DNA from: an uncultured Solirubrobacterales bacterium
Lineage (GTDB): Bacteria; Actinomycetota; Thermoleophilia; Solirubrobacterales; 70-9
DNA: 64,000 nucleotides
Direction of reading: 5' to 3'
Assembly (NCBI GenBank): GCA_963819755.1
Contig: CAWFXB010000002.1
Coordinates: forward strand, 1,620,112 to 1,684,111
In this document: positions 5,794 to 31,991 of the stretch, piece by piece
Numbering within the stretch: position 1 is the first letter of the stretch
Layout of the letters: every line of letters starts with the position of its first letter
Notes under the pieces: generated by a model
The model's database searches: none
What the model was told of the DNA's origin: nothing
What the model saw: the letters and a program-made list of their open reading frames with translations, nothing else
Translations under genes and position numbers: made by a program

Positions 5794-7395
5794 ATGGAGG
5801 CAGCCGAAGCCCTGGGCAGGGGCAACCTGTCGACGTTGTACGAGGCGCTTCGCGAGGCGGTGCGAGCGCGCTCGCGGGCCTTCTGGATCGTCGCCGGGCT
5901 GACCGTTCTCGCGGCGACGCTGCGCTTCGCCACGCTGGGGGTGCAGGCCTACCACCACGACGAGATCGTCACGGCCAGCCGCGTGCTGCGCGACGGCTTC
6001 TGGCATGCGATGGAAGCGGTCGGCTTCAGCGAGTCGGCACCGCCGCTCTACTACGCGCTGGCCTGGTTTTGGACACAGGTGACCGGGACCGGTGAGGTCG
6101 GCCTGCGCTCGGTCTCGGCGCTGGCCGGGGTGGCGACGGTGCCTGTCGCCTACCTGCTCGGCGCCGAGTTGCGCGACCGCCGGGCGGGGATCGTCGCCGC
6201 GGCGCTGGTCGCCGTCAACCCGATGCTGCTCTGGTACTCGCAGGAGGCTCGCAGCTACGCCTTGCTCGTCTTATTGACGGCAGCCGCGGCGCTCTACTTC
6301 GTCCGCGCCCTCAACCGCCCGAGGGACGTGCCGGTGGAGAGAGGTCCATATGGACCTCTCTCCACCGGCACGTCTATGGAGGGGCGTAGGGATCTGGTGC
6401 TGTGGGGGGTGTTCTCGGCGCTCGCGCTCGCGACCCACTATTTCGCGATCTTCCCGATCGCGCTCGAGGGTGGCTGGCTCCTCTGGCGCCGGCGGCGCGA
6501 CGCGCTGGTGGGGCTCTGGATCGTCCTCCTAGCCGGCTTGGCGCTGGCTCCTCTGGCGATCCACCAAATGTCGCTGGGCCACGCCGAGTGGATCGGCGAC
6601 CGCAGCCTCGGCCACCGGGTTTGGGAGGCGGGCGTGACCTTCGTCGTCGGCGAGACCGGCGACGTCGTTTCCCGGCCCGAGACCGTGCTGCCGGCTGTCC
6701 TGCCGCTTCTCGCCGTCCTGGCCGGGCTGCTGCTCCTTGCGCTGCGCGCCGATCGGGGCGAGCGGCGAGCGGGAGGGCTGATGCTGGCCTTGGCCGCGGT
6801 GACCGTCGCCGGGCCGCTGGCCCTGGCGCTCGTCGCTCCCGCCAAGGACTATGTCCTCGCGCGCAACCTGCTGCCGGCGCTGGTACCCCTGCTGGTTGCG
6901 GTGGCGATCGGGGTGACCGCGCGCCGCGCGCGGCGCAGCGGCATGGTCATCGCAGCCGTCCTCGTCGCCTACTCGCTTGGCTTCTGCGTCTGGGTCAGCA
7001 TCTCGCCGGCCTGGCAGCGGCCCGACTGGGACACGGTGGCGGCGCGGCTGGGAGAGCCGGCGGCGCCACGGGCGATCGTCCTCTGGACCCTGGGAGCGGC
7101 ATCGCTGCGCTACTACCTCTCGACCGGCTCGTTCCAGGCGCAGCCCTCCGAAGGCTTCGCCTGGAGCGTGCACGAAGTCGACTTCGTCTCCGACGGCCCC
7201 GCCCCACCCGTCCCGGCCAGCTCGCTTGGACCCCGCTTCCGCCAGGTCGGCTACGAACAGGCCGGCCGTCTTTACGTGCGGCGCTACGCGCTGCCCGGCC
7301 CCGACCTCGCCCACCTGCGCTTGCGGCGGATCCGCGACGCCGACCTCAACTTCCGCAGCAACGGAGTGCTTTTGGACGGGATTGGTCCTCAGTAA
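5794..7395 (+). CDS. GT39/ArnT-like membrane glycosyltransferase (PMT_2-like), carrying an in-frame palindromic insert
   Basis: The 533-aa polytopic membrane protein has an N-terminal YHHDE motif region typical of the dolichyl-phosphate-mannose/ArnT-type GT-C fold. Residues DVPVERGPYGPLSTGTS are encoded by the 50-nt palindrome. Confidence 0.75.
   Translation: MEAAEALGRGNLSTLYEALREAVRARSRAFWIVAGLTVLAATLRFATLGVQAYHHDEIVTASRVLRDGFWHAMEAVGFSESAPPLYYALAWFWTQVTGTGEVGLRSVSALAGVATVPVAYLLGAELRDRRAGIVAAALVAVNPMLLWYSQEARSYALLVLLTAAAALYFVRALNRPRDVPVERGPYGPLSTGTSMEGRRDLVLWGVFSALALATHYFAIFPIALEGGWLLWRRRRDALVGLWIVLLAGLALAPLAIHQMSLGHAEWIGDRSLGHRVWEAGVTFVVGETGDVVSRPETVLPAVLPLLAVLAGLLLLALRADRGERRAGGLMLALAAVTVAGPLALALVAPAKDYVLARNLLPALVPLLVAVAIGVTARRARRSGMVIAAVLVAYSLGFCVWVSISPAWQRPDWDTVAARLGEPAAPRAIVLWTLGAASLRYYLSTGSFQAQPSEGFAWSVHEVDFVSDGPAPPVPASSLGPRFRQVGYEQAGRLYVRRYALPGPDLAHLRLRRIRDADLNFRSNGVLLDGIGPQ
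6325..6374. repeat. Perfect 50-nt palindrome, copy 1 (inside the GT39 CDS, in frame)
   Basis: The sequence gacgtgccggtggagagaggtccat|atggacctctctccaccggcacgtc is its own reverse complement. It is identical to 30780..30829. Confidence 0.95.
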
Positions 7396-10809: not shown

Positions 10810-12217
10810 ATGAGCGAGGAGATCGCTTTCGCGGGGGCCGCGAAGCAGGCGGAGATGGTGCGGGCGGGGGAGGTCTCGCCGCGTGAGTTGGTGGAGCTTT
10901 ACCTCGGTCGGATCGAGCGGCTCGATCCTCAGCTGAACTCGTTCCGGGTGGTGCTCGCCGAGCGGGCCCTGCTCGAAGCGGAGCAGGCCGAGGCGCGGCT
11001 GAAGGGCGGCGACGAGCGGCCCCTGTTGGGGGTCCCGATCGCGCTCAAGGACGAAGTCGACCTCGCCGGAGAGCTGAGCACGCACGGCACCGACGCCTAT
11101 CCTGATCCGGCAGCGGCCGACTGCGAGATGGTCCGCCGGCTGCGCGAGGCGGGAACGATCGTCGTCGGCAAGACGCACCTGCCCGAGCTGGCGATCTGCG
11201 GCTTCACCGAGTCGGCGACCTGGGGAGTGACGCGTAACCCCTGGGATCCGCAGCGCACCCCGGGTGGCTCCAGCGGCGGCAGCGCCGCGGCGGTCGCCGC
11301 TGGCCTCGTCCCGATCGCCTCGGCCTCCGACGGCGGCGGCTCGATTCGCATCCCCGCGTCGTCGTGCGGCCTCTTCGGCCTGAAACCCTCGCGCGCTCGA
11401 GTTTCCCTGGCGCCCCTGGTCGAGCATTGGAACGGGCTTTCGGCGGCCGGCTGTCTCAGCCGCAGCGTGCTCGACACCGCCCTCTGGCTCGACGTCGTCA
11501 GCGGCGGCTCGGCCGACCCGGAGGCGCCACAGCTTCCCGAGCGGCCCTTCGTCGAGTCGGCGCGCACCTCGCCGGGCAAGCTGCGGATCGCCTACTCCAC
11601 CGCGCCGCCCCGCGCCGCCGCTCCCCCCACCGTCTCCGACGTCGCGAAAGACGCCGTCGCCGAGACCGCCGAGCTGCTGCGATTGCTGGGCCATGAGACG
11701 GCGCAGCGCGATCCCGACTGGGGAGGGATCGGCAACAACATCACCCCCCGCTACCTGCGTGGAGTCGCCGAAGACGTGGCAACCGTTCCGCGCCCCGAGC
11801 GGCTCGAACGTCGCACCAAGGGGTTCGCCCAGCTCGAGCCGGCTGATCACCGATGGCATGTTCGAGCGGGCGATGCGTGGCCGCCGGGCCGACGCGGCGC
11901 GCGTCAACGCGATCTTCGCGGACCACGACGTCCTGATGACCCCGGTGATGGGGGGTACGGCGCTGCCGGTGCGCCGCTGGGAGGGACGGGGCGCGCTGTG
12001 GACGATCCTCGGGATGAGCCGCTTCTATCCCTACTGCGTGCCGTGGAACCACCTCGGCAACCCGGCGATGTCAGTGCCGGCCGGCTTCGCCGCCGACGGC
12101 ATGCCGCTCGCGGTCCAGATCGTCGGTCGCCCCGGCGACGAGGCGACCCTGTTGTCGCTCGCCGCCCAGCTCGAGGCCGAGCGGCCCTGGGCGGACAAGC
12201 GCCCGCCGATCTCCTGA
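10810..12217 (+). pseudogene. Amidase (amidase-signature family) with an apparent +1 frame break near 11835-11850
   Basis: The N-terminal ~340 aa (GGSSGGSAAAVAAG...ASDGGGSIRIPAS) lie in ORF 10810... The genuine-looking C-terminus (LMTPVMGGTALP...WNHLGNPAMSVPAGF...PLAVQIVGRPGDEATLLSLAAQLE) lies in ORF 11693..12217, one frame over. The tail of the 10810 ORF is Arg-rich off-frame sequence. Confidence 0.7.
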
Positions 12218-12223
12218 GCGCCG

Positions 12224-13510
12224 CTAGCTGAAGACCTTGCGCATCCGCGCGATCTCGCGGATCTTGCCGCGGGGGCGGAGGCGGCGCTGGAGGATCATCT
12301 TCAGTGGTTTCGCTTCCGGCTTGCCCATGGCGACGAAGTCGGCCCAGTTCGCCTCGATCGTCAGGGTTGGGTTGGGGGCCTCGCCCGGCTCGGCCCTGGT
12401 CGAGCCGTTGTCGATCGTCATGTGCCAGGGGTCGGCGTCGCTGAAGCGGTACTGGTAGACGAGCGGCGAGCCGTTGGCGGCGGCCGGGTTGGCGACGCGC
12501 TTGACCACGTCGAAGTAGAGCCGCTGCGTCTCCGGCGAGGCATCGGGGACCGGGCCGTCGGGCGGGCCGAGGACACCGGCCTCCATCAGCTGCACCTGGC
12601 GCGCGGCGACTTCCTCGGCAGAGGCCTCGGGGTCGAAGGGAAAGACCCCGGGCGGCATCTCCTCGGTCGGATAGCCGATCGTCCGCCAGCGCTGGCGGAT
12701 CAGTTTGAGGCCGAAGGAGAAGATGTCCTCGAGCGAGAAGCCGTAGCACTCGGTGTAGGAGCGGTCCATGTTGGGCGGATAGAAGACGGCCGGCCCGTAG
12801 GGCAGCGTTTCGCGCAGCAGCTCAGTGACAGCGGCGCGATTCTCCTCCCAGCCCGGGTTGCCTTCCCCCAGTAACTCGGAGAGCACCTTGACGCCGAAGC
12901 CGATGTGACGCTGCTCGTCCTTGGAGACGTTGCCCATGCCCTCGCTGAAGCCGGGCATCGTTTCCTTGGAGGCGAAGAAGTCTTCGATGAAGTGCTGGCC
13001 GGGTTGGGCGAGGCTGCCCTCGACGATCAGGTGGTAGAGGGTGATCGCCTGCGCGTACTTTGGCAGCGAGCGGTCCTTGCGCAGTTCCTCGGCCATCAGG
13101 TCGAGCCGGTCGAAGATCCCGCGGTAGCCCCAGTTGAGCTGCGGCATCGTCGAGGAGAGGGTCTGCTGGATCGAGTCGCCGCCGACCCCGATGACCTCCT
13201 TGAAGAAGCGGTGGAAGAAGATCGAGTGACGGACCTCGTCGACCTGCTGGGTGGCGAGGAAGTAGGACTGCTCCTCGGTCGGGGCGGCGTTGATGTAGGG
13301 GGCGAGGGTGTCGGCGACACGGTCCTCGCCGTAGTAGAACATCGAGTAAATCCACATCGCCGAGCGCCGCTGGATGTCGCTCAGCGCCTCCCAGCCGTTG
13401 CGATCCTCGGAGAAGTCGATGTCGTAGGCGCTCCAGTTGCCCTGCTCCCAGCGCTTGTAGAGGTCCACGTAGGTGACGTTGTCCATCAGGCTCTGCGATG
13501 CGACGCTCAT
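12224..13510 (-). CDS. Ferritin-like di-metal carboxylate protein (RNR-R2-like / R2lox-like) fused to a C-terminal SCP2 domain
   Basis: Metal ligands are arranged as YYGEDR, QQVDEVRHS, LIVEGS and SKDEQRHIG (E, ExxH, E, ExxH). The C-terminal ~100 aa (YQYRFSDADPWHMTIDNG...LTIEANWADFVAMGKPEAKPLKMILQRRLRPRGK) are SCP2-like. A strong RBS (aaggagagag) precedes the ATG. Confidence 0.75.
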   Translation of the reverse strand: MSVASQSLMDNVTYVDLYKRWEQGNWSAYDIDFSEDRNGWEALSDIQRRSAMWIYSMFYYGEDRVADTLAPYINAAPTEEQSYFLATQQVDEVRHSIFFHRFFKEVIGVGGDSIQQTLSSTMPQLNWGYRGIFDRLDLMAEELRKDRSLPKYAQAITLYHLIVEGSLAQPGQHFIEDFFASKETMPGFSEGMGNVSKDEQRHIGFGVKVLSELLGEGNPGWEENRAAVTELLRETLPYGPAVFYPPNMDRSYTECYGFSLEDIFSFGLKLIRQRWRTIGYPTEEMPPGVFPFDPEASAEEVAARQVQLMEAGVLGPPDGPVPDASPETQRLYFDVVKRVANPAAANGSPLVYQYRFSDADPWHMTIDNGSTRAEPGEAPNPTLTIEANWADFVAMGKPEAKPLKMILQRRLRPRGKIREIARMRKVFS

Positions 13511-13588
13511 CTCTCTCCTTGGGTCGGGGCGGCTGTGAGCAGGTTACCGCGATCCTGGCCAGCCAGCCAGTTTAGGTGGGTGACTTCG

Positions 13589-15088
13589 TCACACAGCGGC
13601 GGGGGTCTCGATCTCCCGCTTGAGGATCTTGCCGGTGGGGCCCTTGGGCAGCTCGTCGAGGAACCAGACGAGGCGGGGGTACTTGTAGGCGGCGATGCGG
13701 TCCTTGACGTAGGCGCTGATCTCCTCGGGGCCCAGCTCCTCGCCGTCGTGGAGGACGACCGCGGCGCCGATCTCCTCGCCCCACTGATCATGGGGGACGC
13801 CGACCACGGCCGCTTCGCGGATCTTCGGGTGCTCGTAGAGAACCTCCTCGACCTCGCGCGGGTAGACGTTGTAGCCGCCGCGGATGATCAGGTCCTTCTT
13901 GCGGTCGACGATGTAGAAGAAGCCGTCCTCGTCGACGCGGGCCATGTCGCCGCTGTGGAACCAGCCGCCGCGCATCGCCTCCTCGGTCGCTTCGGGACGC
14001 TGCCAGTAGCCCTTCATGACGTTGTGGCCGCGGATCACGATCTCGCCGACCTCGCCCTGGGCGACCGGCTCGTCATCCTCGTTGACGACTCGCATCTCGA
14101 CCCCCTCGATCGGGGTGCCGATCGAGCCCGCCTTGCGCTCTTTGTCGGGGTGGTTGGAACAGGCGACGGGCGAGGTCTCCGAGAGGCCGTATCCCTCCAT
14201 CACCTTCGCCCCGAAAGCGTCTTCGAAGCCGCGCAGCACCTCGACCGGCATCGAGGCGCCGCCGGTGATGCAGATGCGCAGCGCGGAGGTGTCGAAGCTC
14301 TTGCGCTCGGGGTGGTGGAGCAGTGCGCCGTACATCGTCGGCACGCCGTAGAAGTGGGTGACTCCGTCGCGCTGCATCGTCGCCAGCGCCTCGCCGGGGT
14401 CGAATTTGGGCACCAGGGTGAGGCAGGCGCCGACGCCGAGCGAGGCGTTCATCGCGACGGTCTGGCCGAAGGAGTGGAAGAGGGGGAGAGCGCCGAGGAC
14501 GACGTCGCCGGCGCCGATCTCGGAGGTCGTGCGGGAGGAGACGTCGGCGTTGCGCGCCAGGTTGGCGTGGGTCAGCTCTGCGCCCTTGGGCTTGCCGGTG
14601 GTGCCCGAGGTGTAGAGGATCACCGCCGTGTCGTCCTCCGCCGTATCGGCCAAGCCGGGGGTGGGCTCGTTCTCCGTCAGGGTCGCGGCGAAGGCCGCCG
14701 GCTCGACCTCGACCAACTCGGCGCCCGCCTCGGCGGCACCGTCGCCGGCCTCGTCGCAGAAGCCATGCCAGGCAAGCAGCACCTTCGTGCCCGAGTCCTC
14801 AACGTAGAAGGCGATCTCGCGCCGCTTCAACAGCACGTTCATCGGCACGACGATGGCCCCCGCGCGCAGCACGCCGTAGTAGGCGATCGGGAACTCGGGC
14901 ACGTTGGGCAACATCACCCCGACCCGGTCGCCCGGCTGCACCCCATTCTCAGCCAGCAGGGTCGCCAGGCGGGCGCTGCCGTCGTTCAGGTCGCCGTAGC
15001 TCAGCTCGGCCTCGCCGAGGCGGATCGCCGGCGCGCCGGGCGATCGCCCGGCGCGCTCGGTCAGCAGCGATGCGAGGTTCAACCCCAT
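13589..15088 (-). CDS. Long-chain-fatty-acid--CoA ligase (AMP-dependent synthetase)
   Basis: The AMP-binding motif ILYTSGTTGKPKGA is present, with GYGLSETSP, the C-terminal hinge DRKKDLIIRGGYNVYP and PKGPTGKILKRE. The start is set at MGLNLASLL (ATG 15088, GGAG RBS). Confidence 0.9.
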   Translation of the reverse strand: MGLNLASLLTERAGRSPGAPAIRLGEAELSYGDLNDGSARLATLLAENGVQPGDRVGVMLPNVPEFPIAYYGVLRAGAIVVPMNVLLKRREIAFYVEDSGTKVLLAWHGFCDEAGDGAAEAGAELVEVEPAAFAATLTENEPTPGLADTAEDDTAVILYTSGTTGKPKGAELTHANLARNADVSSRTTSEIGAGDVVLGALPLFHSFGQTVAMNASLGVGACLTLVPKFDPGEALATMQRDGVTHFYGVPTMYGALLHHPERKSFDTSALRICITGGASMPVEVLRGFEDAFGAKVMEGYGLSETSPVACSNHPDKERKAGSIGTPIEGVEMRVVNEDDEPVAQGEVGEIVIRGHNVMKGYWQRPEATEEAMRGGWFHSGDMARVDEDGFFYIVDRKKDLIIRGGYNVYPREVEEVLYEHPKIREAAVVGVPHDQWGEEIGAAVVLHDGEELGPEEISAYVKDRIAAYKYPRLVWFLDELPKGPTGKILKREIETPAAV

Positions 15089-15853: not shown

Positions 15854-15898
15854 GAGGCCGAAGGCATCTTGCTGCGAAGTTCTCTAGCATTGCGCGCC

Positions 15899-16411
15899 GT
15901 GAAGCTGCCGATCGCCCTGATTGCGCTGTGCGCCGTGCTGGCATTCGCCGGCTGCGGTAGCAGCAGCGACTCCTCAAGTGGTTCGAGCGAATCGACCGGG
16001 GCTACGACGGAATCGACCTCCGCCGAAGCGGCCGGTGGCGAAAAGACCAAGCCGAAGGTCACGGTGCCCACGGGCGCTCCACCGAAGAAGCTCGAAGTCA
16101 AGGAACTCGAAGAAGGCAGCGGCGCCGAAGCGAAATCGGGCGACCAAGTCACCGTCCAGTACGTCGGTGTCGACTACAAGAACGGCAAGGAATTCGATTC
16201 CTCCTGGAGCCGCAACGAACCGTTCAGCTTCAAGCTCGGTGCGGGAGAAGTGATTCCCGGCTGGGACCAGGGCGTCGAAGGAATGAAGGCCGGCGGCCGC
16301 CGCGAGCTGATCATCCCGCCGGAACTCGCCTACGGCGAATCCGGCGCCCCGCCCGCGATCGGTCCGAACGAAACGCTCGTGTTCGTGATCGACCTGCTCG
16401 AAGTCAGCTAG
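15899..16411 (+). CDS. FKBP-type peptidyl-prolyl cis-trans isomerase lipoprotein
   Basis: There is a lipobox LAFAGC. The FKBP core reads GDQVTVQYVGVDYKNGKEFDSSW...FKLGAGEVIPGWDQGVEGMKAGGRRELIIPPELAYG. The GTG start gives MKLPIALIAL. Confidence 0.85.
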   Translation: MKLPIALIALCAVLAFAGCGSSSDSSSGSSESTGATTESTSAEAAGGEKTKPKVTVPTGAPPKKLEVKELEEGSGAEAKSGDQVTVQYVGVDYKNGKEFDSSWSRNEPFSFKLGAGEVIPGWDQGVEGMKAGGRRELIIPPELAYGESGAPPAIGPNETLVFVIDLLEVS

Positions 16412-16479
16412 GAACCGCCGAGCCAAGGGGGCGTCCGCGCGCCGGGTGTCCGTCGCTTTAATTGCTTAGGATATTCGTA

Positions 16480-16986
16480 GTGAAGGCTCCGATGTTTCTG
16501 ATTGCGACGTGCGCCGTCCTGGCGATGGCCGGCTGCGGTGGCGGCGACGACTCCTCCGGCGAATCCGCGGCTGCTGCGACGAGCGAATCGCCGGCGCTGA
16601 CCAGCAAGCCCGTGGTCGCGGTCCCGGAAGGCCCGCCACCGGAACAGCTGGAAATAAAAGATCTGCAGGAAGGTAGCGGCGCCCCCGTCGAACGCGGTGA
16701 CTACGTCACGGTCCAGTACGTGGGGGTCGACTACGAAACCGGTAAGCAATTCGACTCTTCCTGGGGTGGCAAGCCGCTCAGCTTCACGGTCGGCGCCGGC
16801 GAAGTGATACCCGGCTGGGAAAAGGGCATCGAAGGAATGAGGCCCGGCGGTCGCCGGGAGTTGATCGTCCCGCCTGGCCTCGCCTATGGCAAGGCTGGTT
16901 CTCCACCGGCAATCGGGCCGAGCCAGACGCTTGTATTCGTAATCGATCTGTTTGAAACCAGCACGCCCCCGCCCAATTCTCGCTGA
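16480..16986 (+). CDS. FKBP-type peptidyl-prolyl cis-trans isomerase lipoprotein (tandem paralogue)
   Basis: There is a lipobox LAMAGC. The FKBP core reads GDYVTVQYVGVDYETGKQFDSSW...FTVGAGEVIPGWEKGIEGMRPGGRRELIVPPGLAYG. Confidence 0.85.
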   Translation: MKAPMFLIATCAVLAMAGCGGGDDSSGESAAAATSESPALTSKPVVAVPEGPPPEQLEIKDLQEGSGAPVERGDYVTVQYVGVDYETGKQFDSSWGGKPLSFTVGAGEVIPGWEKGIEGMRPGGRRELIVPPGLAYGKAGSPPAIGPSQTLVFVIDLFETSTPPPNSR

Positions 16987-17989
16987 GCGCCTGACCGCGC
17001 AGGCCCTGTCCGGGAGCCCGCTGGCCGATCCTGCCGCAGTCGCCGAGCGACTCCTCGCCGTCCAGGGCCAGGACCCACGCGGCTTCAGGCTCGCCATTCG
17101 GGCGCGCACCGAGAGGCTTGCCGCGGCTGACGTCGAGCGTGCCTTGGCGGGGCGCGAACTAGTCGTTACCTGGCTCAACCGCGGGACGCTGCATCTGGTT
17201 CGCAGCGAGGACTACCCGCTGCTGCAGTCTCTGACCACGCCGCCGCTCCTCACCTCCAGCGTCCGGCGATTACGGCAGGAGGGTGTGAGCGAGGCCAAGG
17301 CCGAGCGGGCGGTCGAGACGATCGAGCGGGCACTCGAAGACGAGGGCCCGCTGACGCGGATCCAGCTGCGCGAGCGGATCGACGCCGCCGGCGTGCGAAC
17401 CGATGGCCAGGCGATGATCCACCTGCTCTTCCTCGCGGCCCTGCGCGGTGTTGTCGTGCGCGGGCCGGCGATCGGCAAGCAGCATGCCTACGTGCTGGTG
17501 CGGGATTGGTTGGGCGAACCCCCGGCGATCGACCGCGAGAAGGCACTGGCCGAGCTTGCGCGCCGCTACCTGGTGGGCCACCAGCCGGCGACCGATCGCG
17601 ACCTCGCCAAGTGGGCCGGCCTGCCGCTGCGCGACGCCCGCGCCGGCCTGCAGGCGATCGGCTCCGAGCTGGAGGAGGGGGGAGATGGGCTGGTCAGCCT
17701 CGCCAAGCGCGCCGCGCCGGAGAAGCTTCCGCCGCCACGCCTGCTCGGTGCCTTCGACCCGGTCCTGCTCGGCTGGACCTCTCGCGAGCCGATCCTCGGC
17801 GAGCACGAGCCACGCGTCGTCACCGGCGGCATCTTCCGTCCCTTCGCGATGGCCAAAGGCCGCGCCGTCGCCGGCTGGACGCTGGCCAAGGGCAGGGTGG
17901 CAACCGAGCCATTTGGCGATCTCTCGCGGCAGACGTCCGCCGCGCTCCAGGAGGAGGCGGCGGACGTCGAGCGATTCCTTATGCGCTAG
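16952..17989 (+). CDS. Winged-helix DNA-binding protein of the YcaQ/AlkZ (DUF1006) family
   Basis: The N-terminal pattern AVAERLLAVQGQDPRGFRLAIRAR...LVVTWLNRGTLHLV and the length are typical of this family. The start is uncertain because the ORF overlaps the FKBP stop. Confidence 0.65.
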   Translation: MKPARPRPILAERLTAQALSGSPLADPAAVAERLLAVQGQDPRGFRLAIRARTERLAAADVERALAGRELVVTWLNRGTLHLVRSEDYPLLQSLTTPPLLTSSVRRLRQEGVSEAKAERAVETIERALEDEGPLTRIQLRERIDAAGVRTDGQAMIHLLFLAALRGVVVRGPAIGKQHAYVLVRDWLGEPPAIDREKALAELARRYLVGHQPATDRDLAKWAGLPLRDARAGLQAIGSELEEGGDGLVSLAKRAAPEKLPPPRLLGAFDPVLLGWTSREPILGEHEPRVVTGGIFRPFAMAKGRAVAGWTLAKGRVATEPFGDLSRQTSAALQEEAADVERFLMR

Positions 17990-19887
17990 GGAGCGACAAC
18001 TGGCGATTCGACTTCGCCGCTGATCGCCGGCGCATTCAGCGCTTGAGCCGTAACCACGAGTTTCATCGTGTGGGTCACGGCTTCCGGAGTGGGCGTGACC
18101 GTGACCACCGGTGCGGTGAAGTTCGCTCCGGACGGGAGCCGGCAGGTCACCTGGCCCCCCGACGGAGTGGTGCAGTCGATGTTCTGGCCGGCGATCTGGA
18201 TCGAGTCGAGCGTCGTTTTTTCCGGCAGGGTGAACGTCGCCGTCGGTTCGTCGAGCCCGCCGGTACTCGCTTGGACTTCCGCCGTGAACACTGCCGGTTC
18301 TCCTGCTTCCGGAGTCGGGGGAGAGGTGTATTTCGGCGTGAGGGTGATCGACGTGTTGATGAGCTCCGTGTCCAGCGCGTCGATTTCGTCCCGGGCGGTG
18401 AGCGTGGCGCCGCCTGCCAGGTAGGTCCCGAAGAAGCGGAAGTTGGCGGGACTGCTTTGGCCAGGGGCATCGGCGGGCATCGCGAAGGTGACCGTCTGCG
18501 TCGTCTGCTGCCCGCTCGCCAGGCCGCCCACCGGGCAGCTGGCCAGACCCTGGGAGAAGGGGCCGGGAGCAACTGAGACCGTGCATCCTGGGCTGCCCGA
18601 GATGAACGAGCTGCCTGCGGGCAGGGCCACGGTGGCCTGTCCCGCTGCCAGTGCACTGCTTGCCGGCACGGCATTGGGAGTGAAGAGGAGGCTGCTCGAC
18701 GGGACCGCTTCCGTGTTGGTCGCCACGGCGTTGACGCTTGCCGCTCCAGTGCCGAACGAGTAGCCGACGAAGGCCTCGTTTCCGCCGGCTTCGTTTCCGC
18801 CCGGGTAGTCAAAGCGGAAGCGACCGTCGGAGAAGAGCACCAGTTGGAAGTTCCTCAGAGGCAGGGTGCCGTTGCAGCACTGGCCGGTGTGCCACTGGAA
18901 GGCGACCGAGTTGCCGTCCGCGGCCACGACCTCTTTGACGCTGCCGCTACCGGTGGTCGGCTCGCCGATGTTGAGGTCGGCCCAATAGGGCATGATCCCC
19001 CGCGCGATGTTGCCGACTATCTCGTTCACTCCGCGATAGTCGGAGGACTGCTCGTCCCCCCAGTAGTCCCAGGCGGGGCTGCCGAAGCTGACCCAGCCGT
19101 TGGTCGAGACGCTGATCTTGCGCTCCTTGATCCCGCCGAACGGGAAGTCGAACGGCAGGTCCAGGGTCACCTGGCCATCGTCTTCGTCGGGAAGGGCGAG
19201 GTCGGTGGTGGTCCCCCCGGCCAGCGGCTGGGGGGCGATGTCCGAGCGGGCGTAGCCGGCCTGGCCGGGGATCGCGTTGCCGGAGGTAAGCGTTGCGGTG
19301 ACCGGATCGCCGGGTTTGGGCTCGTGTCCTTCGGCGTTCTCGACGAAGCCCCAGTCGAGGCCGTCGGTCATCGTGAACGCGGGCCTGGCGGGGCCGGGCA
19401 GGGGCGCTGGGGTCGGCAGGGGCGTGAGTTTGAACTGCTTGGACGCCCGACAGTTGTCCTTCTCCTTCGATTCACGCAAGCTCTTGCCGTCGTCCGCGCA
19501 GGCGATCAGCCGGTAGGTGCCCGGGACGGATTTCGCCGGCAAGAGCACTTTGAATTTGGCTTTGACTTTTTTGTGGGAGCGAAGCGCTTTGACCCTCGTG
19601 CGCTTCAAACGCAGATCTTTGTGCGTGAGTTTCTTGCCCTTGGCCAAGTAAAGCCCCACCTTGCTCTTGCGGGCTTTTGCCTGACCCTTGTTGCGCAACT
19701 TGACTGAAATGGTGATCTTGGACCCGACGACGACGCTGGCGGGCGGCTTCGAGACCTTGCCGACGACGAGGTCGGGCAGCAGCGGCCCTTTCCCGTGTTT
19801 CGCCTGCTTGGCGTTTGCAAGGGGGACCGCAGCGAGAAGCGCGATCAGCCCGAGCCCGACAGTGAGTGCAATCTTTGCGCGGATCAT
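17986..19887 (-). CDS. Large secreted protein with an N-terminal CARDB-like domain
   Basis: The signal peptide is MIRAKIALTVGLGLIALLAAVPLANA. It is followed by LPDLVVGKVSKPP...ITISVKLRNKGQAKA...YRLIACADD (CARDB pattern) and C-terminal beta-rich repeats. Confidence 0.65.
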   Translation of the reverse strand: MIRAKIALTVGLGLIALLAAVPLANAKQAKHGKGPLLPDLVVGKVSKPPASVVVGSKITISVKLRNKGQAKARKSKVGLYLAKGKKLTHKDLRLKRTRVKALRSHKKVKAKFKVLLPAKSVPGTYRLIACADDGKSLRESKEKDNCRASKQFKLTPLPTPAPLPGPARPAFTMTDGLDWGFVENAEGHEPKPGDPVTATLTSGNAIPGQAGYARSDIAPQPLAGGTTTDLALPDEDDGQVTLDLPFDFPFGGIKERKISVSTNGWVSFGSPAWDYWGDEQSSDYRGVNEIVGNIARGIMPYWADLNIGEPTTGSGSVKEVVAADGNSVAFQWHTGQCCNGTLPLRNFQLVLFSDGRFRFDYPGGNEAGGNEAFVGYSFGTGAASVNAVATNTEAVPSSSLLFTPNAVPASSALAAGQATVALPAGSSFISGSPGCTVSVAPGPFSQGLASCPVGGLASGQQTTQTVTFAMPADAPGQSSPANFRFFGTYLAGGATLTARDEIDALDTELINTSITLTPKYTSPPTPEAGEPAVFTAEVQASTGGLDEPTATFTLPEKTTLDSIQIAGQNIDCTTPSGGQVTCRLPSGANFTAPVVTVTPTPEAVTHTMKLVVTAQALNAPAISGEVESPVVAP

Positions 19888-19929
19888 TGCGCGAGCATAT
19901 TGCACCGATTCCCGCCAGGATGGGAATCG

Positions 19930-20151
19930 CTAGTCCAGCTTGGGGCTGCGCCAGGGCTGGGCCAGGCGTTTCGCCAGGTCATCGGCCAGGCCATCGATCG
20001 GGACCCGGGATTGCTCCAGCGAGTCGCGGTCGCGCAGGGTGACGGTGTCGTCTTCCATCGTCTGGTGGTCGACGGTGATTCCCCAGGGGGTGCCGATCTC
20101 GTCCTGGCGGCGGTAGCGCTTGCCGATCGAGCCGCCCTCATCGAACTCGGC
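19930..20151 (-). pseudogene. Orphan duplicate of the glyQS 3' end (last ~73 codons plus stop)
   Basis: This 222-nt ungapped match to 20737..20958 has 11 mismatches by hand alignment. It encodes [72 protein letters not shown]. Confidence 0.85.
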
Positions 20152-20400
20152 AGTTTCGCAGACCTGGCGAGGGTTTTTCGTTGCCCCTGGGGCGAACTTG
20201 CCCTGCTGCGCTCTTGGTAGCGGGTGGGAAAGCGAAAGGGTCGCCAGCGACATACACAGTTCATGGATGCAAGTTCAGAGAAGGTCGCCAGGATGGCTCG
20301 CGATCGATCCCTCCCGGTCGCGCTACGCCGCAAGGCGCAAGCAGAAGAGAAGGAGCGAAAGCTCCGTAACCGACAGAAACGCGAAAGCAATTGAACGAGC

Positions 20401-20733
20401 ATGAAGCCCTACACTCAAAACGTGTCGAAACGTCCTCGATACCGATGGCGGACCTGGCTCCGGGGGCATTTGCCCTGGGCCCTGGTGGATTTTTTTCCTC
20501 GGGGCGCAAAAGACTGCGGTGACCACGAGTGGTTTCGTTTCGATCACGACACCGACCTGTGCTACCACTGCGAAGTCGGGGAGCGAGAGCACCAGCACAC
20601 TCCCATCGACTGGAGCAGCGGCTTATGGCGGGAACTGACCCGCCTGGCCGACGAAGGCGACGAGGACTACCACCAACTCATCCGGCAGATGCGCCGCGAG
20701 GAAGCGGAAGCGCAGCGCCACATAACCATCTAG
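20401..20733 (+). CDS. Hypothetical 110-aa Cys/His-containing protein inside the glyQS-flanked insert
   Basis: The ATG ORF contains CGDHEW...CYHCEVGEREHQH followed by an acidic helical tail. Its stop lies 3 nt from the glyQS stop. I recognise no homolog. Confidence 0.45.
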   Translation: MKPYTQNVSKRPRYRWRTWLRGHLPWALVDFFPRGAKDCGDHEWFRFDHDTDLCYHCEVGEREHQHTPIDWSSGLWRELTRLADEGDEDYHQLIRQMRREEAEAQRHITI

Positions 20734-20736
20734 CGG

Positions 20737-20958
20737 TCAGCCGAGCTTCGGGCTGCGCCAGGGCTGGGCCAGGCGTTTCGCCAGGTCATCGGCAAGGCCC
20801 TCGATTGGGACCCGGGATTGCTCTAGCGAGTCGCGGTCGCGCAGGGTGACGGTGTCGTCTTCCATCGTCTGGTGGTCGACGGTGATTCCCCAGGGGGTGC
20901 CGATCTCGTCCTGGCGACGGTAGCGCTTGCCGATCGAGCCGCCCTCGTCGAACTCGGC
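20737..20958. repeat. Direct repeat partner (functional glyQS 3' end) of 19930..20151
   Basis: See the hand alignment: 222 nt with 11 mismatches. Confidence 0.9.
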
Positions 20959-22128
20959 GGGGACGCGGCGGCGCACCTCGTTGAAGATCTCGCGGGCCTT
21001 CTCCGGCATTCCCTCCTTGGAGACGAGCGGCAGGATCGCCACCTTGACCGGTGCCAGGCGGGGATGGAGGCGCAGCACGGTGCGCTCGCGTCCCTCGACC
21101 TCCTCGACCTCGTAGGAGTCGACGAGGAAGGCGAGCGTCGCGCGGTCGGCGCCGGCGGCCGGCTCGATCACGTGGGGGACGTAGCGCTCTTTGGTCTGTT
21201 GGTCGAAGTACTCGAGCTTCTCGCCGCTGAACTTGGCGTGCTGGGTGAGGTCGAAGTCGCCGCGGTTGGCGATCCCCTCCAGCTCCGACCAGCCGATCGG
21301 GAAGAGGTACTCGATGTCGCTGGTCGCCGAGGAGTAGTGCGAGAGCTCGTCGGCACCGTGGGCGCGCACCCGCAGCAGGTCGGGGCGGATGCCGAGGTCG
21401 GTGTACCAATGCTCGCGCTCCTCCATCCAGATCTTGTGCCACTTTTCGGCTTCGGCGGGGGGGACGAAGAACTCCATCTCCATCTGCTCGAACTCGCGGG
21501 TGCGGAAGATGAAGTTGCCGGGGGTGATCTCGTTGCGGAAGGACTTGCCGATCTGGGCGATTCCAAATGGCGGCTTCTTGCGGGCGAAGCCGAGCACGTT
21601 CTTGAAGTTGATGAAGATGCCCTGCGCGGTCTCCGGCCGCAGGTAGACCTCCGAGCCCTCGCCCGCCACCGGGCCGACGTGGGTCTCGAACATCAGGTTG
21701 AACTGGCGCGGCTCGGAGAGCTCGCCGCCGCACTCCGGGCAGCGCAGCTCCGCCTCGGGGTCGCCGCCTTCGGCCTCGACCGCCTCGCGCAGATGATCCT
21801 CGCGCCAGCGCCGCTTGCACTTGCCCAGGCACTGCACCAGGGGGTCGGTGAAGCCCTCCAGGTGGCCCGAGGCCTCCCAGACCCGCGGGTGCTGGAGGAT
21901 CGCCGAGTCGAGCGCGACGATGTCGTCGCGCTCCTGCAGCATCGCCCGCCACCACTCGGCCTTGACGTTGTTCTTCAGCAGCACGCCGTAATGGCCGTAG
22001 TCGTAGGTCGAGCCGAGTCCGCCGTAGATCTCCGAGGAGGGGAAGACGAAGCCGCGCCGCTTGCAGAGAGCGACGATCTCCTCCATCGAGGTCTCGGTGC
22101 TGCGCGTCTCCTGCCCGGCGCTTGCCAT
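20737..22128 (-). CDS. glyQS: Glycine--tRNA ligase (class II, homodimeric GlyQS type)
   Basis: The N-terminus has IVALCKRRGFVFPSSEIYGGLGSTYDYGHYG, class II motifs are present, and there is a C-terminal anticodon-binding domain. The start is set at MASAGQE (22128) because ATG 22167 would overlap the divergent gene start. Confidence 0.95.
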   Translation of the reverse strand: MASAGQETRSTETSMEEIVALCKRRGFVFPSSEIYGGLGSTYDYGHYGVLLKNNVKAEWWRAMLQERDDIVALDSAILQHPRVWEASGHLEGFTDPLVQCLGKCKRRWREDHLREAVEAEGGDPEAELRCPECGGELSEPRQFNLMFETHVGPVAGEGSEVYLRPETAQGIFINFKNVLGFARKKPPFGIAQIGKSFRNEITPGNFIFRTREFEQMEMEFFVPPAEAEKWHKIWMEEREHWYTDLGIRPDLLRVRAHGADELSHYSSATSDIEYLFPIGWSELEGIANRGDFDLTQHAKFSGEKLEYFDQQTKERYVPHVIEPAAGADRATLAFLVDSYEVEEVEGRERTVLRLHPRLAPVKVAILPLVSKEGMPEKAREIFNEVRRRVPAEFDEGGSIGKRYRRQDEIGTPWGITVDHQTMEDDTVTLRDRDSLEQSRVPIEGLADDLAKRLAQPWRSPKLG

Positions 22129-22165
22129 GGCTGAACCGTACCGGCTGCGATAATCGCCCACCGTC

Positions 22166-22468
22166 ATGCCGATCTACGAGTACAAATGCACCAACGGCCA
22201 CGTCTTCGACGTGATCCAGCGGATGAGCGATGAGGCGCTGACCGAGTGCCAGGAGTGCGGCGCTCCCGCCGAGCGCGTCCTGCACCCCGTCGCGATCCAC
22301 TTCAAGGGGTCGGGCTTCCACAACACCGACTACGGTAAGAAGAAGACCGGCGCCAACGGTGGCCCCTCCGAGGGGGGCAAGGACTCGGGCGACTCGAAGC
22401 CGAGTGAGAGCAAGCCCTCAGACTCCAAGTCAAGCGACTCGAAAACCACAGCCGCAACCGGCGACTGA
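22166..22468 (+). CDS. FmdB-family zinc-ribbon protein
   Basis: MPIYEYKCTNGHVFDVIQRMSDEALTECQECGAPAERV is the CxxC_CxxC_SSSS signature. The C-terminal tail is low-complexity and rich in Ser/Lys/Asp. Confidence 0.8.
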   Translation: MPIYEYKCTNGHVFDVIQRMSDEALTECQECGAPAERVLHPVAIHFKGSGFHNTDYGKKKTGANGGPSEGGKDSGDSKPSESKPSDSKSSDSKTTAATGD

Positions 22469-25587: not shown

Positions 25588-25760
25588 CGCAACTCGGCGC
25601 CCGCTGCCCGTCTCGGAGGCTTCACGGCTATGTTACAAAAATGTCTGACAAATACACTAAATTATGCAACGAACTCACGCCGGGCCACAGTCAATGGGTA
25701 GCCCGACGTGAGTCGTCAAACAATCGTGGCGCGCAATGCGCCAGACAAAGGAGAGAGTAA

Positions 25761-26384
25761 ATGAAGCACGCGAAGCTGTTTGGTCTTTGCCTTCTCGGCG
25801 TAGTGGCCGCGATGGCAGTGATGGGAGTGGGTACTGCATCGGCTACGAAGCTGTGCTCGGAAAACAAAACCCCGTGCCCGGCTGGGTCGACGGTCAAAAC
25901 CGGCTCGGCGATCAAAGCCCAACTGGTCGCTGGGACCAAATCTGTCTTCACGACCTCGCTGCTCGTCGTCGAATGCTCAGAATCGACGATAGAAGGCAAA
26001 ACGACGAACGAAGGCGGCAGCGGCGCTGCAGTTCCGGTCAAAGGGGAAATTACGTCAGTCGTCTGGAAAAGCTGCAAAGCGGGCGGTGGATCCTGCACCG
26101 CGGCGGCACTGGGCCTTCCGTGGACCTCTGAAGTGACCGGCAGCGAAGGTAATGGGACGATGACCGTGCTGAAATCGGGCGGGAAATTCACCTGCACGGT
26201 CACCTGCGAATACGAAGCCGCCTCGCTGGCGACCTCTGCGACCGGCGGAAACCCGGCCGTGATCAAAGCGAACAAAGCCAGCCTCAAAAAGAAAGGTGGC
26301 AGCTTCCTCTGCCCCTCGACGGCAACGTGGACCTCTGAATACGAAGTCACCACGCCGAAACCGCTGTTCGTCGTGAGCGAATAG
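25761..26384 (+). CDS. Secreted Cys-rich hypothetical protein
   Basis: The RBS is aaaggagag and the signal peptide is MKHAKLFGLCLLGVVAAMAVMGVGTASA. The mature part is beta-rich with about 10 Cys. The gene and its upstream region are visibly more A/T-rich than the neighbours. Confidence 0.6.
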   Translation: MKHAKLFGLCLLGVVAAMAVMGVGTASATKLCSENKTPCPAGSTVKTGSAIKAQLVAGTKSVFTTSLLVVECSESTIEGKTTNEGGSGAAVPVKGEITSVVWKSCKAGGGSCTAAALGLPWTSEVTGSEGNGTMTVLKSGGKFTCTVTCEYEAASLATSATGGNPAVIKANKASLKKKGGSFLCPSTATWTSEYEVTTPKPLFVVSE

Positions 26385-26411
26385 AAGGATGGATCGGCTG
26401 GGCTGATCGGG

Positions 26412-26443
26412 ACCGGGCGGCTGCCTTGCAGCCGCCCGGTTTG
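26412..26443 (+). terminator. Intrinsic terminator-like hairpin after the secreted-protein gene
   Basis: The sequence accgggcggctgc-ctt-gcagccgcccggt forms a 13-bp stem and is followed by ttg. Confidence 0.6.
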
Positions 26444-26478
26444 CGACATGGCGCACGTTGCTAGCGTGCCGGTCCAGG

Positions 26479-27993
26479 ATGAGCCGGGAGAGCTTCTACG
26501 TCACCACGCCGATCTACTACGTCAACGCCGAGCCACATCTCGGCCACGCGTACTCGACGCTGGTGGCTGACGTCCTCGCCCGGCACATGCGCCAGCGTGG
26601 CGAGGACGTCTTCTTCCTCACCGGCACCGACGAGCACGGCGAGCCGATCGAGCTGGCGGCCGAGCGCGAGGGCGTGACGCCGCAGGAGCTGGCCGACCGC
26701 AACGCCGCCAAGTTCGAAGCGCTGATGCCGATCATCGACGCCAGCAACGACTTCTTCATCCGCACCTCCGACCCGCGCCACGCCGAGAAGGTCGCCGAGA
26801 TCATGCAGCGGGTCTACGACAACGGCTGGGTCAACAAGGGCACCTACGAAGGCTGGTACTGCCCGCGCTGCGCCGACTTCAAAACCGAGCGCGAGCTCGG
26901 CCCCGGCCAGACCTGCCCGATCCACGAGATCCCGTTGGAGCGGATCAAGGAGGAGAACTGGTTCTTCCGCCTCTCTGCCTTCCAGGAGCGGCTCGAAGCG
27001 CTCTACGAGGAGCGGCCCGACTTCGTCGTGCCCGACTTCCGTCGCAACGAGGCGGTCTCCTTCATCGAGGGGGGGCTGGAGGACGTCTCGCTCTCGCGGC
27101 CGAAGCTGAAGTGGGGGATGCGGCTGCCCTGGGACCCCGAGCAGCGGATGTACGTGTGGTTTGACGCGCTGCTCAACTACGTCACCGCGCTCACCTTCGC
27201 CCGCGAGGGTGAGGATCTGACCGAGCGCTTCTGGCCGGCGAGCCTGCACGTGATGGCCAAGGACATCCTCAAGTTCCACGCGGTGATCTGGCCGGCGCTG
27301 CTCTGGGCGGCGGACCTCGAGCCGCCGAAGCGGATGGCGATCCATGGCTATCTGATGATGGGTGAGAAAAAGATGTCGAAGTCGCTCGGCAACGTGCTCG
27401 ACCCCTTCGAGGCGATCGACCGCTTCGGCGCCGACGCGCTGCGCTTCTACTGCTTCCGCGAGGTCAGCTTCGGCCAGGACGGCTCGATCTCGACCGCCGG
27501 CTTCGAGGCCCGCTACGAGACCGAGCTGGCCAACGACTTCGGCAACCTCGCCAGCCGCGTGCTGGCGATGGTCGAGCGCTACCGCGACGGCGTCGTCCCG
27601 GAGGCACAGGTCGACGCCGTGCTGGCCGAGGACTTCGAAGGCGTCGCCAGCCGCTTCAGCGAGTTGCTCGACAAGGCTGAGTTGACTCAGGCGCTGGAGG
27701 AGGCCTGGAAGCTGGTCCGTCGCCTCAACCGCTACGTCGAGGAGACCCGGCCGTGGGAGCTGGCGAAGGACGAGGCCGACCCGGAGCGCCTCGACGAAGT
27801 CCTCTACAACCTCGTCGAGGGCCTGCGGGTGACGACGCTGCTGCTCGTTCCCTACCTGCCGCAGACGAGCGAGCAGCTGCTCACCGCTCTAAACGAGGAC
27901 TCTCGCCAGCTCAACGAGCTAGGAGCCCGGGCTGGCGGCCAAAAGGTCGAACGGGTCCCACCGCTGTTCCCGAAGATCGAGACGCCCGCTTAG
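26479..27993 (+). CDS. metG: Methionine--tRNA ligase
   Basis: The HIGH region reads YYVNAEPHLGHAYS and the KMSKS motif reads KMSKSLGN. There is a Cys knuckle, CPRCADF...CPIH. Confidence 0.95.
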   Translation: MSRESFYVTTPIYYVNAEPHLGHAYSTLVADVLARHMRQRGEDVFFLTGTDEHGEPIELAAEREGVTPQELADRNAAKFEALMPIIDASNDFFIRTSDPRHAEKVAEIMQRVYDNGWVNKGTYEGWYCPRCADFKTERELGPGQTCPIHEIPLERIKEENWFFRLSAFQERLEALYEERPDFVVPDFRRNEAVSFIEGGLEDVSLSRPKLKWGMRLPWDPEQRMYVWFDALLNYVTALTFAREGEDLTERFWPASLHVMAKDILKFHAVIWPALLWAADLEPPKRMAIHGYLMMGEKKMSKSLGNVLDPFEAIDRFGADALRFYCFREVSFGQDGSISTAGFEARYETELANDFGNLASRVLAMVERYRDGVVPEAQVDAVLAEDFEGVASRFSELLDKAELTQALEEAWKLVRRLNRYVEETRPWELAKDEADPERLDEVLYNLVEGLRVTTLLLVPYLPQTSEQLLTALNEDSRQLNELGARAGGQKVERVPPLFPKIETPA

Positions 27994-30725: not shown

Positions 30726-30779
30726 CTGACCGCTCCCTTCGAGTTTGGCTGGTCAGCCAACTGTATCGCCCACCCGCCG

Positions 30780-30829
30780 GACGTGCCGGTGGAGAGAGGT
30801 CCATATGGACCTCTCTCCACCGGCACGTC
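30780..30829. repeat. Perfect 50-nt palindrome, copy 2 (overlaps the stop codon of the sugar dehydrogenase gene)
   Basis: It is identical to 6325..6374. It lies in the 102-nt gap between two minus-strand genes, and the stop codon at 30828-30830 shares 2 nt with it. Confidence 0.95.
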
Positions 30830-31991
30830 AGTGGCGCGGGACGAGTCGATAGACCGGGCCGTCGAGCGAGCAGACATAGACACGACCGCGGTCGTCTTCG
30901 CCGAAGGAGCTGGGGGAGGAGACGCTGAGGCCGAGCTTGTGCTCGTCGCTCGCCCCGTGCAGGTGGGGGACGAGGCTGCGCAGCTGGCCCTCGCAGAGGT
31001 CGGCGTAGACATAGCGCTTGTAGAGCGAGGTCAGGTGCGGATCGGCGACCACGTAGCCGCCGATGATCGCGCAGCTGCCGCCGCGGCTGTGCGGATAAGC
31101 GAAGATCGGCTTGACCGTGCCGCCCGGATCCGGCGTGCCGCTGTTTTCTTCTTCGTAGGGGGCGAACCCCTCGAAGGCGTCCCAGCCGAAGTTGGCGCCC
31201 TGTGCCGCGGCGACCGTGGTGTAGTCGACCTCCTCGAAGCGGTTCTGGCCGACGTCGCCGATCGCCAGCCGCGGCTGCCCCGGGTCCGTCACCCGGTCGA
31301 AGGAGAAGCGGAAGGGATTGCGCAGGCCGATGCTGTAGATCTGCGGTTTGGCGCCGGCGCGCTGTGGGTCGATCCGCAGCAGCTTGCCGAGCAGTTTGTG
31401 CGGGTTCTGGGCGTTGTTCGGCGGATCGCCGCCCGAGCCGCCGTCGCCGGTGCCGAAGTAGAGCCAGTTGCCGAGGAACTGGAGCTGGCCGCCGTTGTGA
31501 TTGGAGTTGACCGGGTGGGGTATCCGGACTATTGCGCGACGGGAGCCCCGCGCGGCTTGCGTCGCGCTCCTACGTTTGAGTTCGTCGATCCTGATGTTGC
31601 CCTGGGGATCGGTGTCGTAGACGTAGAAGCGGCCGCTGCTCTTGTAGTCGGGGGGGAAGGCGATCGAGAGCAGGCCGCGCTCGCCGCCGGAGGAGATCAG
31701 GTCGTGGATGTCGAGGAAGGGACGAGCCTGCTTGTGCCCGTTGCGCAGCACCTGCACCGTCCCGCCCTGCTCGACAACGAAGAGCAGCTTTGGGAAGCCG
31801 GGTGCGCCGGTGACGTAGACCGGGCTTTCGAAGCTGCCGATCTGCTTCAGGCCGACGCCCTGAGCTGCCGATTGCGCCGCTTCCTCGGGCGGCTGAGCCG
31901 ATCCGCAGGCCGGTAGGGCCAGCGCCAAGAGCAGCGCGAGGGCGCTACTTGCCGCTGTGCGTCTTCCCTTCGATTTCAACGACTTCGCCAT
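30828..31991 (-). CDS. PQQ-dependent soluble sugar (glucose/sorbosone) dehydrogenase lipoprotein
   Basis: There is a lipobox LALPAC, with the motifs GGERGLLSIAFPPDY, HNGGQLQFL and GLRNPFRFSFD. Confidence 0.85.
   Translation of the reverse strand: MAKSLKSKGRRTAASSALALLLALALPACGSAQPPEEAAQSAAQGVGLKQIGSFESPVYVTGAPGFPKLLFVVEQGGTVQVLRNGHKQARPFLDIHDLISSGGERGLLSIAFPPDYKSSGRFYVYDTDPQGNIRIDELKRRSATQAARGSRRAIVRIPHPVNSNHNGGQLQFLGNWLYFGTGDGGSGGDPPNNAQNPHKLLGKLLRIDPQRAGAKPQIYSIGLRNPFRFSFDRVTDPGQPRLAIGDVGQNRFEEVDYTTVAAAQGANFGWDAFEGFAPYEEENSGTPDPGGTVKPIFAYPHSRGGSCAIIGGYVVADPHLTSLYKRYVYADLCEGQLRSLVPHLHGASDEHKLGLSVSSPSSFGEDDRGRVYVCSLDGPVYRLVPRH

Follow-up and report, generated by a model that had tools for sequence, protein, structure and literature searches.

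The window analysed here is a 64,000-nt stretch of contig CAWFXB010000002.1 from an uncultured Solirubrobacterales bacterium (assembly GCA_963819755.1). In it the 3' end of glyQS, the gene of a glycyl-tRNA synthetase (GlyRS), is present twice: one copy ends the working gene, and the other, an orphan, lies across a 585-bp interval, beside the gene of a CARDB-domain secreted protein. Judged by its alignments to relatives, the region between glyQS and the neighbouring alkZ-like DNA glycosylase gene is an allele A, which carries the CARDB gene, and an allele B, which carries the small gene pair orf56-orf110, in tandem. The two alleles were probably joined by one homologous and one illegitimate crossover, in the manner of homology-facilitated illegitimate recombination (HFIR). 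Recombination scars of this kind are known, but the place of this new one, the gene of an essential aminoacyl-tRNA synthetase, is unusual. Coordinates are collected in Table 1.

The duplicated 3' end of glyQS

Aligned base by base, 19930-20151 and 20737-20958 are direct repeats of 222 nt without gaps and with 11 mismatches, and similarity drops abruptly at both edges. An automated repeat search returned nearly the same limits (19932-20151 and 20739-20958, 96% identity, spacing 807 nt); neither further copies of the repeat nor a larger element bounded by more repeats were found in the whole window. On the minus strand, each copy encodes the last 73 GlyRS residues and then stops, the orphan at TAG and the attached copy at TGA. 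The two products differ at two amino acids (D/E, and D/G at the terminus), and both match Pfam HGTP_anticodon. The attached copy runs on into a complete class II GlyQS of 476 aa; beyond 20151, on the upstream side of the orphan, the sequence shares nothing with glyQS. A sequence-only reading of the window had already described the repeat, its limits and mismatches, the ~73 GlyRS codons and stop in each copy and the different continuations of the two copies, and all of this was confirmed. It had also called the interval between the copies more A/T-rich than the flanks, which is correct but mild, because G+C is 0.58-0.62 over 20200-20600 and 0.66-0.70 in the flanks.

The interval contains two conserved plus-strand genes that the sequence-only reading had not mentioned, orf56 and orf110, convergent with glyQS. 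Past the orphan, in the sense of glyQS, the CARDB gene comes next and is followed by the convergent alkZ-like gene. No tRNA or tmRNA gene that might act as an integration target is present in the window, and no Rfam family (E up to 1) or sigma-70-type promoter was detected over 19700-21100.

Table 1. Features of the alkZ-glyQS region, in window coordinates.
Feature	Position	Strand	Basis
alkZ-like DNA glycosylase gene, left conserved flank	16952..17989	+	Pfam AlkZ-like, E=2e-54; same place in nearly all relatives
CARDB-domain secreted protein gene, 639 aa, cargo of allele A	17986..19905	-	Pfam CARDB
Orphan glyQS 3' end, 73 codons and TAG; displaced end of allele A	19930..20151	-	11/222 differences from 20737-20958
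Junction filler, probably a decayed relic of the allele B alkZ terminator	20152..20188	+	aligns to terminator palindrome; hairpin call
orf56 leader, conserved; allele B homology starts here	20189..20223	+	conserved in 16 loci
orf56, small basic protein, first gene of the allele B pair	20224..20394	+	beside orf110 in ~60 loci; no Pfam family
orf110, small zinc-knuckle protein (C-x2-H...C-x-H-C), uncharacterised	20401..20733	+	31 homologous clusters
Attached repeat copy, working 3' end of glyQS	20737..20958	-	continuous with the full gene
glyQS, class II glycyl-tRNA synthetase, 476 aa, right conserved flank	20737..22167	-	Pfam tRNA-synt_2b and HGTP_anticodon

Alternative arrangements in relatives

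Comparison of GlyRS proteins places the window among uncultured Solirubrobacterales/Thermoleophilia, and synteny with relatives covered about 8-31 kb. Two arrangements without any duplication account for the two halves of the window. Type A (alkZ> <CARDB <glyQS) is found in five relatives (L087, L088, L089, L090, L171); their CARDB protein is 93% identical to that of the window in L087 and 66-67% identical in the more distant L171. Type B (alkZ> orf56> orf110> <glyQS), likewise without an orphan glyQS end, is found in at least 25 relatives. The closest of these are L081 and L086, whose GlyRS is 98% identical to that of the window, as is the GlyRS of the type A loci L087 and L088. Other type B loci are L083, L084, L085, L092-L094, L096-L098, L102-L107, L109, L110, L112-L114, L125 and L126. 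Some are compact (L086, L094, L097, L102, L104) and many others have extra cargo on one side or the other; in L086, only 77 bp separate alkZ from the small ORF that precedes the orf110 homologue. In a third arrangement, type C (L174, L175), an orf175 homologue stands directly after glyQS. In their flanking genes, relatives of types A and B resemble the window to the same degree (~90-97% nucleotide identity). Because types A and B both occur without the duplication, the empty site predicted by the sequence-only reading, in which glyQS directly adjoins the CARDB gene, and its reciprocal both exist.

More generally, the length of the alkZ-glyQS interval ranges from about 70 bp (L006, L007) to one to five unrelated genes (L001, L002, L003), and its cargo in various relatives includes Kiwa-like, ATPase, MFS or SIR2-kinase genes. 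The best explanation is that the interval is a hypervariable recombination hotspot of this Solirubrobacterales lineage, with several old alternative forms. Genes of defence type are found at this hotspot or beside it. In L002, the variable interval or its surroundings (11461-14783) contain a DUF234 ATPase gene and a KwaB (Kiwa) homologue that has a membrane partner. A CRISPR-Cas module (Cas2, Cas4-Cas1 fusion) adjoins glyQS in L082 (15428-20333).

Second 3' ends of glyQS are rare. None was found in 80 genome loci, and 2 of the 116 glyQS 3' ends examined are duplicated, those of the window and L091 only. In L091, an independent JGI metagenome contig, the orphan (4441-4577) is decayed and frameshifted and corresponds to positions 62-198 of the 222 nt. 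It lies directly before the orf56 leader and is followed, in the sense of glyQS, by an orf175 gene instead of the CARDB gene. Since the type C arrangement exists on its own, L091 can be described as C + B, in analogy to A + B in the window. The window segment 20089-20188, which has CCCC(A/T)GGGG at its borders, is missing from L091. The scar in L091 could have arisen independently, or it could go back to one ancient junction shared with the window and altered since by a deletion and a swap of cargo. The other flanking gene has left a scar as well: in the overlapping pair L172 (4556-4976) and L173 (2-278), part of the alkZ interior (residues 134-274) stands orphaned within the alkZ-glyQS interval, together with a SIR2_2 and protein-kinase gene and homologues of orf175 and orf110. 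As scars derive from both flanking genes, general recombination at the hotspot is favoured over an integrase specific for glyQS.

Anatomy of the junction

The window is collinear with allele A up to 20151 and with allele B from about 20189. Positions 19401-20151, comprising the 5' end of the CARDB gene, the spacer and the orphan glyQS end, form a single collinear high-scoring segment pair with every type A locus, and all of these alignments stop exactly at 20151. Type B alignments start at 20188/20189; in L086, for example, the sequence that immediately follows the alkZ stop codon (9732 onward) is 92-93% identical to the window from 20189 on. The 37 nt in between (20152-20188) have no other match in the window or in the loci. 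In L082, L083 and L092-L098, however, the palindrome CCGGTTCCGCGGAACCGG and a T-run (...TTTCTC) stand before the orf56 leader, and by eye about 12 of 19 positions of the filler agree with them. A terminator-like hairpin is also predicted on the plus strand at 20154-20172. The filler is therefore probably what is left of the allele B alkZ terminator after decay. No extended similarity spans 20151|20152, and this point would be an illegitimate joint, with glyQS position -222 on one side and the sequence just beyond the end of alkZ on the other. Because allele B homology starts just past alkZ and the filler resembles the alkZ terminator, the joint connects the two edges of the variable interval. 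A simple tandem duplication was considered and rejected, as the two units are unlike in content: the alkZ-side unit holds the CARDB gene and the glyQS-side unit holds orf56-orf110.

Divergence of the two copies

The 11 mismatches are distributed as between functional orthologues. Nine change the third base of a codon (p=0.0014 when compared with random placement), and ten fall at sites that vary among 30 orthologues, where 93 of the 222 sites are variable (p=9e-4). An in-situ duplication followed by neutral decay of the orphan predicts that ~53% of differences lie outside third positions; 2 of 11 do (p=0.02). When polarised against orthologues, about five changes are private to each copy, and those of the attached copy are all synonymous. 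The copies differ from one another at 11 positions, compared with 14 differences to the nearest orthologue, L088. They seem to have diverged as functional orthologues do and not as a decaying in-situ pseudogene, which agrees with what the sequence-only reading had held about their origin. The simplest reading is that each end was part of a functional gene while it evolved, in two closely related strains, and that they came together recently.

Proposed mechanism and its alternatives

In the proposed recombination, the incoming DNA would stem from a related strain that carried the other allele, and one crossover would have taken place inside shared sequence, either glyQS or alkZ. The second end would have been joined illegitimately, from glyQS position -222 to the point just past the alkZ stop codon. 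The product would have one complete glyQS with the 3' end of one strain, while the last 222 nt of the other strain's gene would be orphaned and still attached to the CARDB gene. A dedicated integrase would play no part. Had the recipient been of type A, the anchor would be glyQS, and the incoming glyQS end with orf110, orf56 and the terminator would have displaced the resident 222 nt and the CARDB gene. In a type B recipient, the anchor would be alkZ, and the incoming DNA would comprise the CARDB gene and 222 nt of the donor glyQS. The CARDB segment with the orphan can be named the insert equally well. Tiled identities do not fix the direction of transfer or the donor, because the flanks are a mosaic and the CARDB gene has L087-like and L090-like parts. 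Within the CARDB gene, tiles over 18201-19400 are 96-99% identical to L087, above the surrounding core genes, and the tile at 19401-19700 is 83% identical to L087 and 93% identical to L090, a pattern that points to recent intragenic recombination.

Several observations count against this joining of two alleles. In a neighbour-joining tree, the two copies are sisters (182 of 200 bootstraps), which in-situ duplication or gene conversion would also fit. States common to both copies, including Ser and Lys codons, occur in no sampled relative, and no parental strain is among those sampled; any microhomology at the illegitimate joint, typically a few bases, would have to be read from parental sequences. 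The model also supposes natural transformation or conjugation in these uncultured bacteria. Finally, the lack of a recombinase elsewhere in the 64 kb holds for the best 25 of 59 Pfam families and otherwise rests mainly on synteny with relatives, in which the flanks are core genes.

The sister relationship and the common derived states of the copies are what an alternative in two or three steps would predict, in which allele B was duplicated in tandem in its own genome, over a segment that began right behind alkZ and reached 222 nt into glyQS, and a cassette was swapped afterwards. Homologous recombination, with alkZ and the orphan glyQS end as arms, would have replaced the alkZ-proximal copy by allele A; the same duplication would have given L091 when allele C was swapped in and 100 nt were deleted. 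The geometry of the joint, which links the edges of the interval, suits a tandem duplication, as does the stretch missing from L091, which is exactly window 20089-20188 and is flanked by the CCCC(A/T)GGGG microhomology. Nine of the 11 mismatches are clustered within the 88 nt next to the CARDB gene, as a later crossover within the orphan would predict, but this also fits the general variability of the gene end, where orthologues have 54 variable sites in the last 88 nt and 39 in the first 134. The L091 orphan, moreover, carries no window-specific states, and the B-B tandem intermediate is seen in none of about 40 type B loci. The number of steps required also counts against this sequence of events, which is unlikely, though it comes closest among the alternatives.

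The sequence-only reading had interpreted the repeats as the footprint of site-specific integration. In terms of the genes found since, orf56-orf110 and a surrogate glyQS 3' end serving as attP would form an 807-bp non-autonomous or decayed integrative element that inserted into glyQS, in parallel to e14 and phage 21 in icd. The geometry it proposed was borne out, in that one copy regenerates glyQS and the other is a displaced 3' end still joined to its native downstream gene, and so was the empty site; the orthologue-like copies are equally compatible with it. The start of the module with the same leader sequence in many contexts and the orphan that precedes the same module in L091, with other cargo downstream (possibly a second integration), could be added in its favour. 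The proposed mechanism is nevertheless not supported. The 'insert' is the normal content of the alkZ-glyQS interval in at least 25 genomes without an orphan, some of them without room for one (77 bp in L086). The insert appears to open with a relic of the alkZ terminator. Neither the module nor a GlyRS surrogate end was found in IMG/VR, phages or plasmids, no signature of an integrase or excisionase is seen in orf56 or orf110, and in distant Actinobacteria these two genes are linked to uvrA and pafBC-like genes. The junction points of the two orphan cases also differ on both sides. Such an element is accordingly very unlikely. Less probable again is a variant in which orf56-orf110 and the glyQS 3' end form a minimal non-autonomous cassette, moved in trans by an unlinked recombinase that repeatedly targets the glyQS 3' end; the window (into A) and L091 (into C) would then be independent insertions, and type B loci without an orphan would be old insertions from which the orphan was deleted.

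The least probable explanation of all is a chimeric assembly, in which co-occurring strains with allele A and allele B were mis-joined. Close relatives with both alleles do coexist in soil metagenomes, some of them from one study. Window proteins were never matched at 100% identity in the protein collection, so the junction is without an independent copy. The joined sequences, however, have no k-mer in common, and an overlap or graph error is therefore unexpected at this joint. All genes of the product are whole and in the right orientation, the terminator relic has diverged and is no fresh copy, and the independent contig L091 shows an analogous orphan.

The arrangement is potentially reversible through its 222-nt repeats: they could now mediate a RecA-dependent loss of orf56-orf110, which would restore allele A with a chimeric but intact glyQS.

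Comparison with known systems

C-terminal displacement and orphan arrays are known from Rhs, contact-dependent inhibition (CDI) and type VI secretion system (T6SS) effector loci, for which HFIR has been proposed as the origin (PMC5361080); experiments on HFIR and its properties are summarised in PMC3240628. On the proposed reading, the glyQS scar shares several features with them. The incoming module has its homologous anchor in a conserved gene upstream and supplies another 3' end together with the genes that follow it; the former 3' end and the gene behind it are displaced and survive as orphans; one junction is illegitimate; and related strains hold alternative modules without orphans. Two signs of displacement can be read from the window as well, since the orphan is still collinear with the CARDB gene, as in strains with allele A only, and homology switches sharply at the joint. 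The differences concern the genes involved. Here the gene is an essential housekeeping aminoacyl-tRNA synthetase and not a polymorphic toxin, and its 3' ends are functionally equivalent (95% identical, with two amino-acid differences), not alternative toxin tips. The cargo consists of a CARDB surface protein in one allele and a small repair-linked gene pair in the other. For this lineage, HFIR is proposed by analogy with the Rhs/T6SS loci.

Another parallel is the integration of e14 or phage 21 into the Escherichia coli icd gene, which leaves the orphan 3' pseudogene icdC; icd-icdC chimeras form when e14 is lost (PMC13626634, and Hill et al. 1989 cited there). As in the window, a substitute 3' end restores a protein-coding gene, and the native end is kept as a direct repeat that has diverged slightly, mostly by synonymous differences. 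Recombination between the copies gives a functional chimeric gene and could do so in the window. However, e14, a prophage of 15 kb, encodes an integrase of its own and has an SOS-inducible, site-specific excision, whereas the 585-bp interval contains no recombinase and is ordinary chromosomal content in most relatives, not a mobile element.

The alkZ-glyQS interval also resembles chromosomal integration hotspots. In these, variable content lies between conserved core genes, and most turnover is scarless. Similarly, alkZ and glyQS bracket content that differs among close relatives and includes KwaB, a DUF234 ATPase and a SIR2-kinase. Unlike at typical hotspots, fragments of the flanking genes are duplicated here and record the illegitimate joint. 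The window offers a clean natural case in which gene sets of a hotspot were stacked instead of swapped, with part of an essential gene duplicated as the scar. The lesson is chiefly one of method: a repeat that flanks an insert at the 3' end of a gene is insufficient to call an integrative element, and comparison with relatives reversed which part looked foreign.

The orf56-orf110 gene pair

A by-product of the comparison is a conserved, uncharacterised zinc-knuckle gene pair linked to alkZ, uvrA and PafBC-like genes across Actinobacteria. Neither orf56 nor orf110 has a Pfam match or a meaningful PHROG match. The orf110 family comprises 31 clusters with invariant C39, H42, C54, H56 and C57, which form the C-x2-H...C-x-H-C signature. 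An AlphaFold2 model of orf110 (pLDDT 79) gave a best Foldseek match to the PDB at E=4.6, with a faint likeness to zinc-ribbon ribosomal proteins only, and a profile search of PDB sequences yielded nothing meaningful. The signature had suggested an HNH/homing nuclease or a recombinase, an idea that found no support in Pfam, PHROG, PDB sequences or fold comparison and was dropped. In line with the sequence-only reading, no recombinase was recognised between the repeats by searches of Pfam, PHROG and PDB sequences or by a fold search of orf56 and orf110.

In the clade of the window, the pair lies downstream of alkZ in the same orientation. In distant Actinobacteria, it is found directly upstream of uvrA, beside an MBL-fold gene, at no fewer than 13 loci (at least 13, including L116, L117, L128, L130-L132, L139, L141, L142, L156, L159 and L163), and upstream of a PafBC-like WYL regulator at two others (L149, L165). 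Because of these uvrA and PafBC-like neighbours, the pair looks chromosomal and linked to DNA repair, and orf56-orf110 may be an uncharacterised DNA-damage-response gene pair. Nothing in these comparisons indicates that the insert is mobile: relatives of orf110 were not found in IMG/VR, phage or plasmid collections, a GlyRS C-terminal surrogate end was not found in IMG/VR, and the idea of a discrete mobile unit was not upheld, given that at least 25 loci carry orf56-orf110 without a second glyQS end.

Other observations in the window

A second variable spot lies between rsmI and metG (25691-26449), where tiles over 25701-26600 match only L087, and weakly (71-79%). Its ORFs are low in third-position G+C, and one encodes a 207-aa product in which an N-terminal signal peptide is suspected by eye. 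Tandem paralogous genes for FKBP-type peptidyl-prolyl isomerase lipoproteins are present at 15869-16411 and 16462-16986; they are 77-78% identical at the nucleotide level over about 200 nt, and some relatives have a single copy. An element of 70 nt occurs in two copies that are 90% identical (6315-6384 and 30770-30839). It is a long, nearly perfect palindrome (GACGTGCCGGTGGAGAGAGGTCCATATGGACCTCTCTCCACCGGCACGTC) and is REP- or MITE-like in look.

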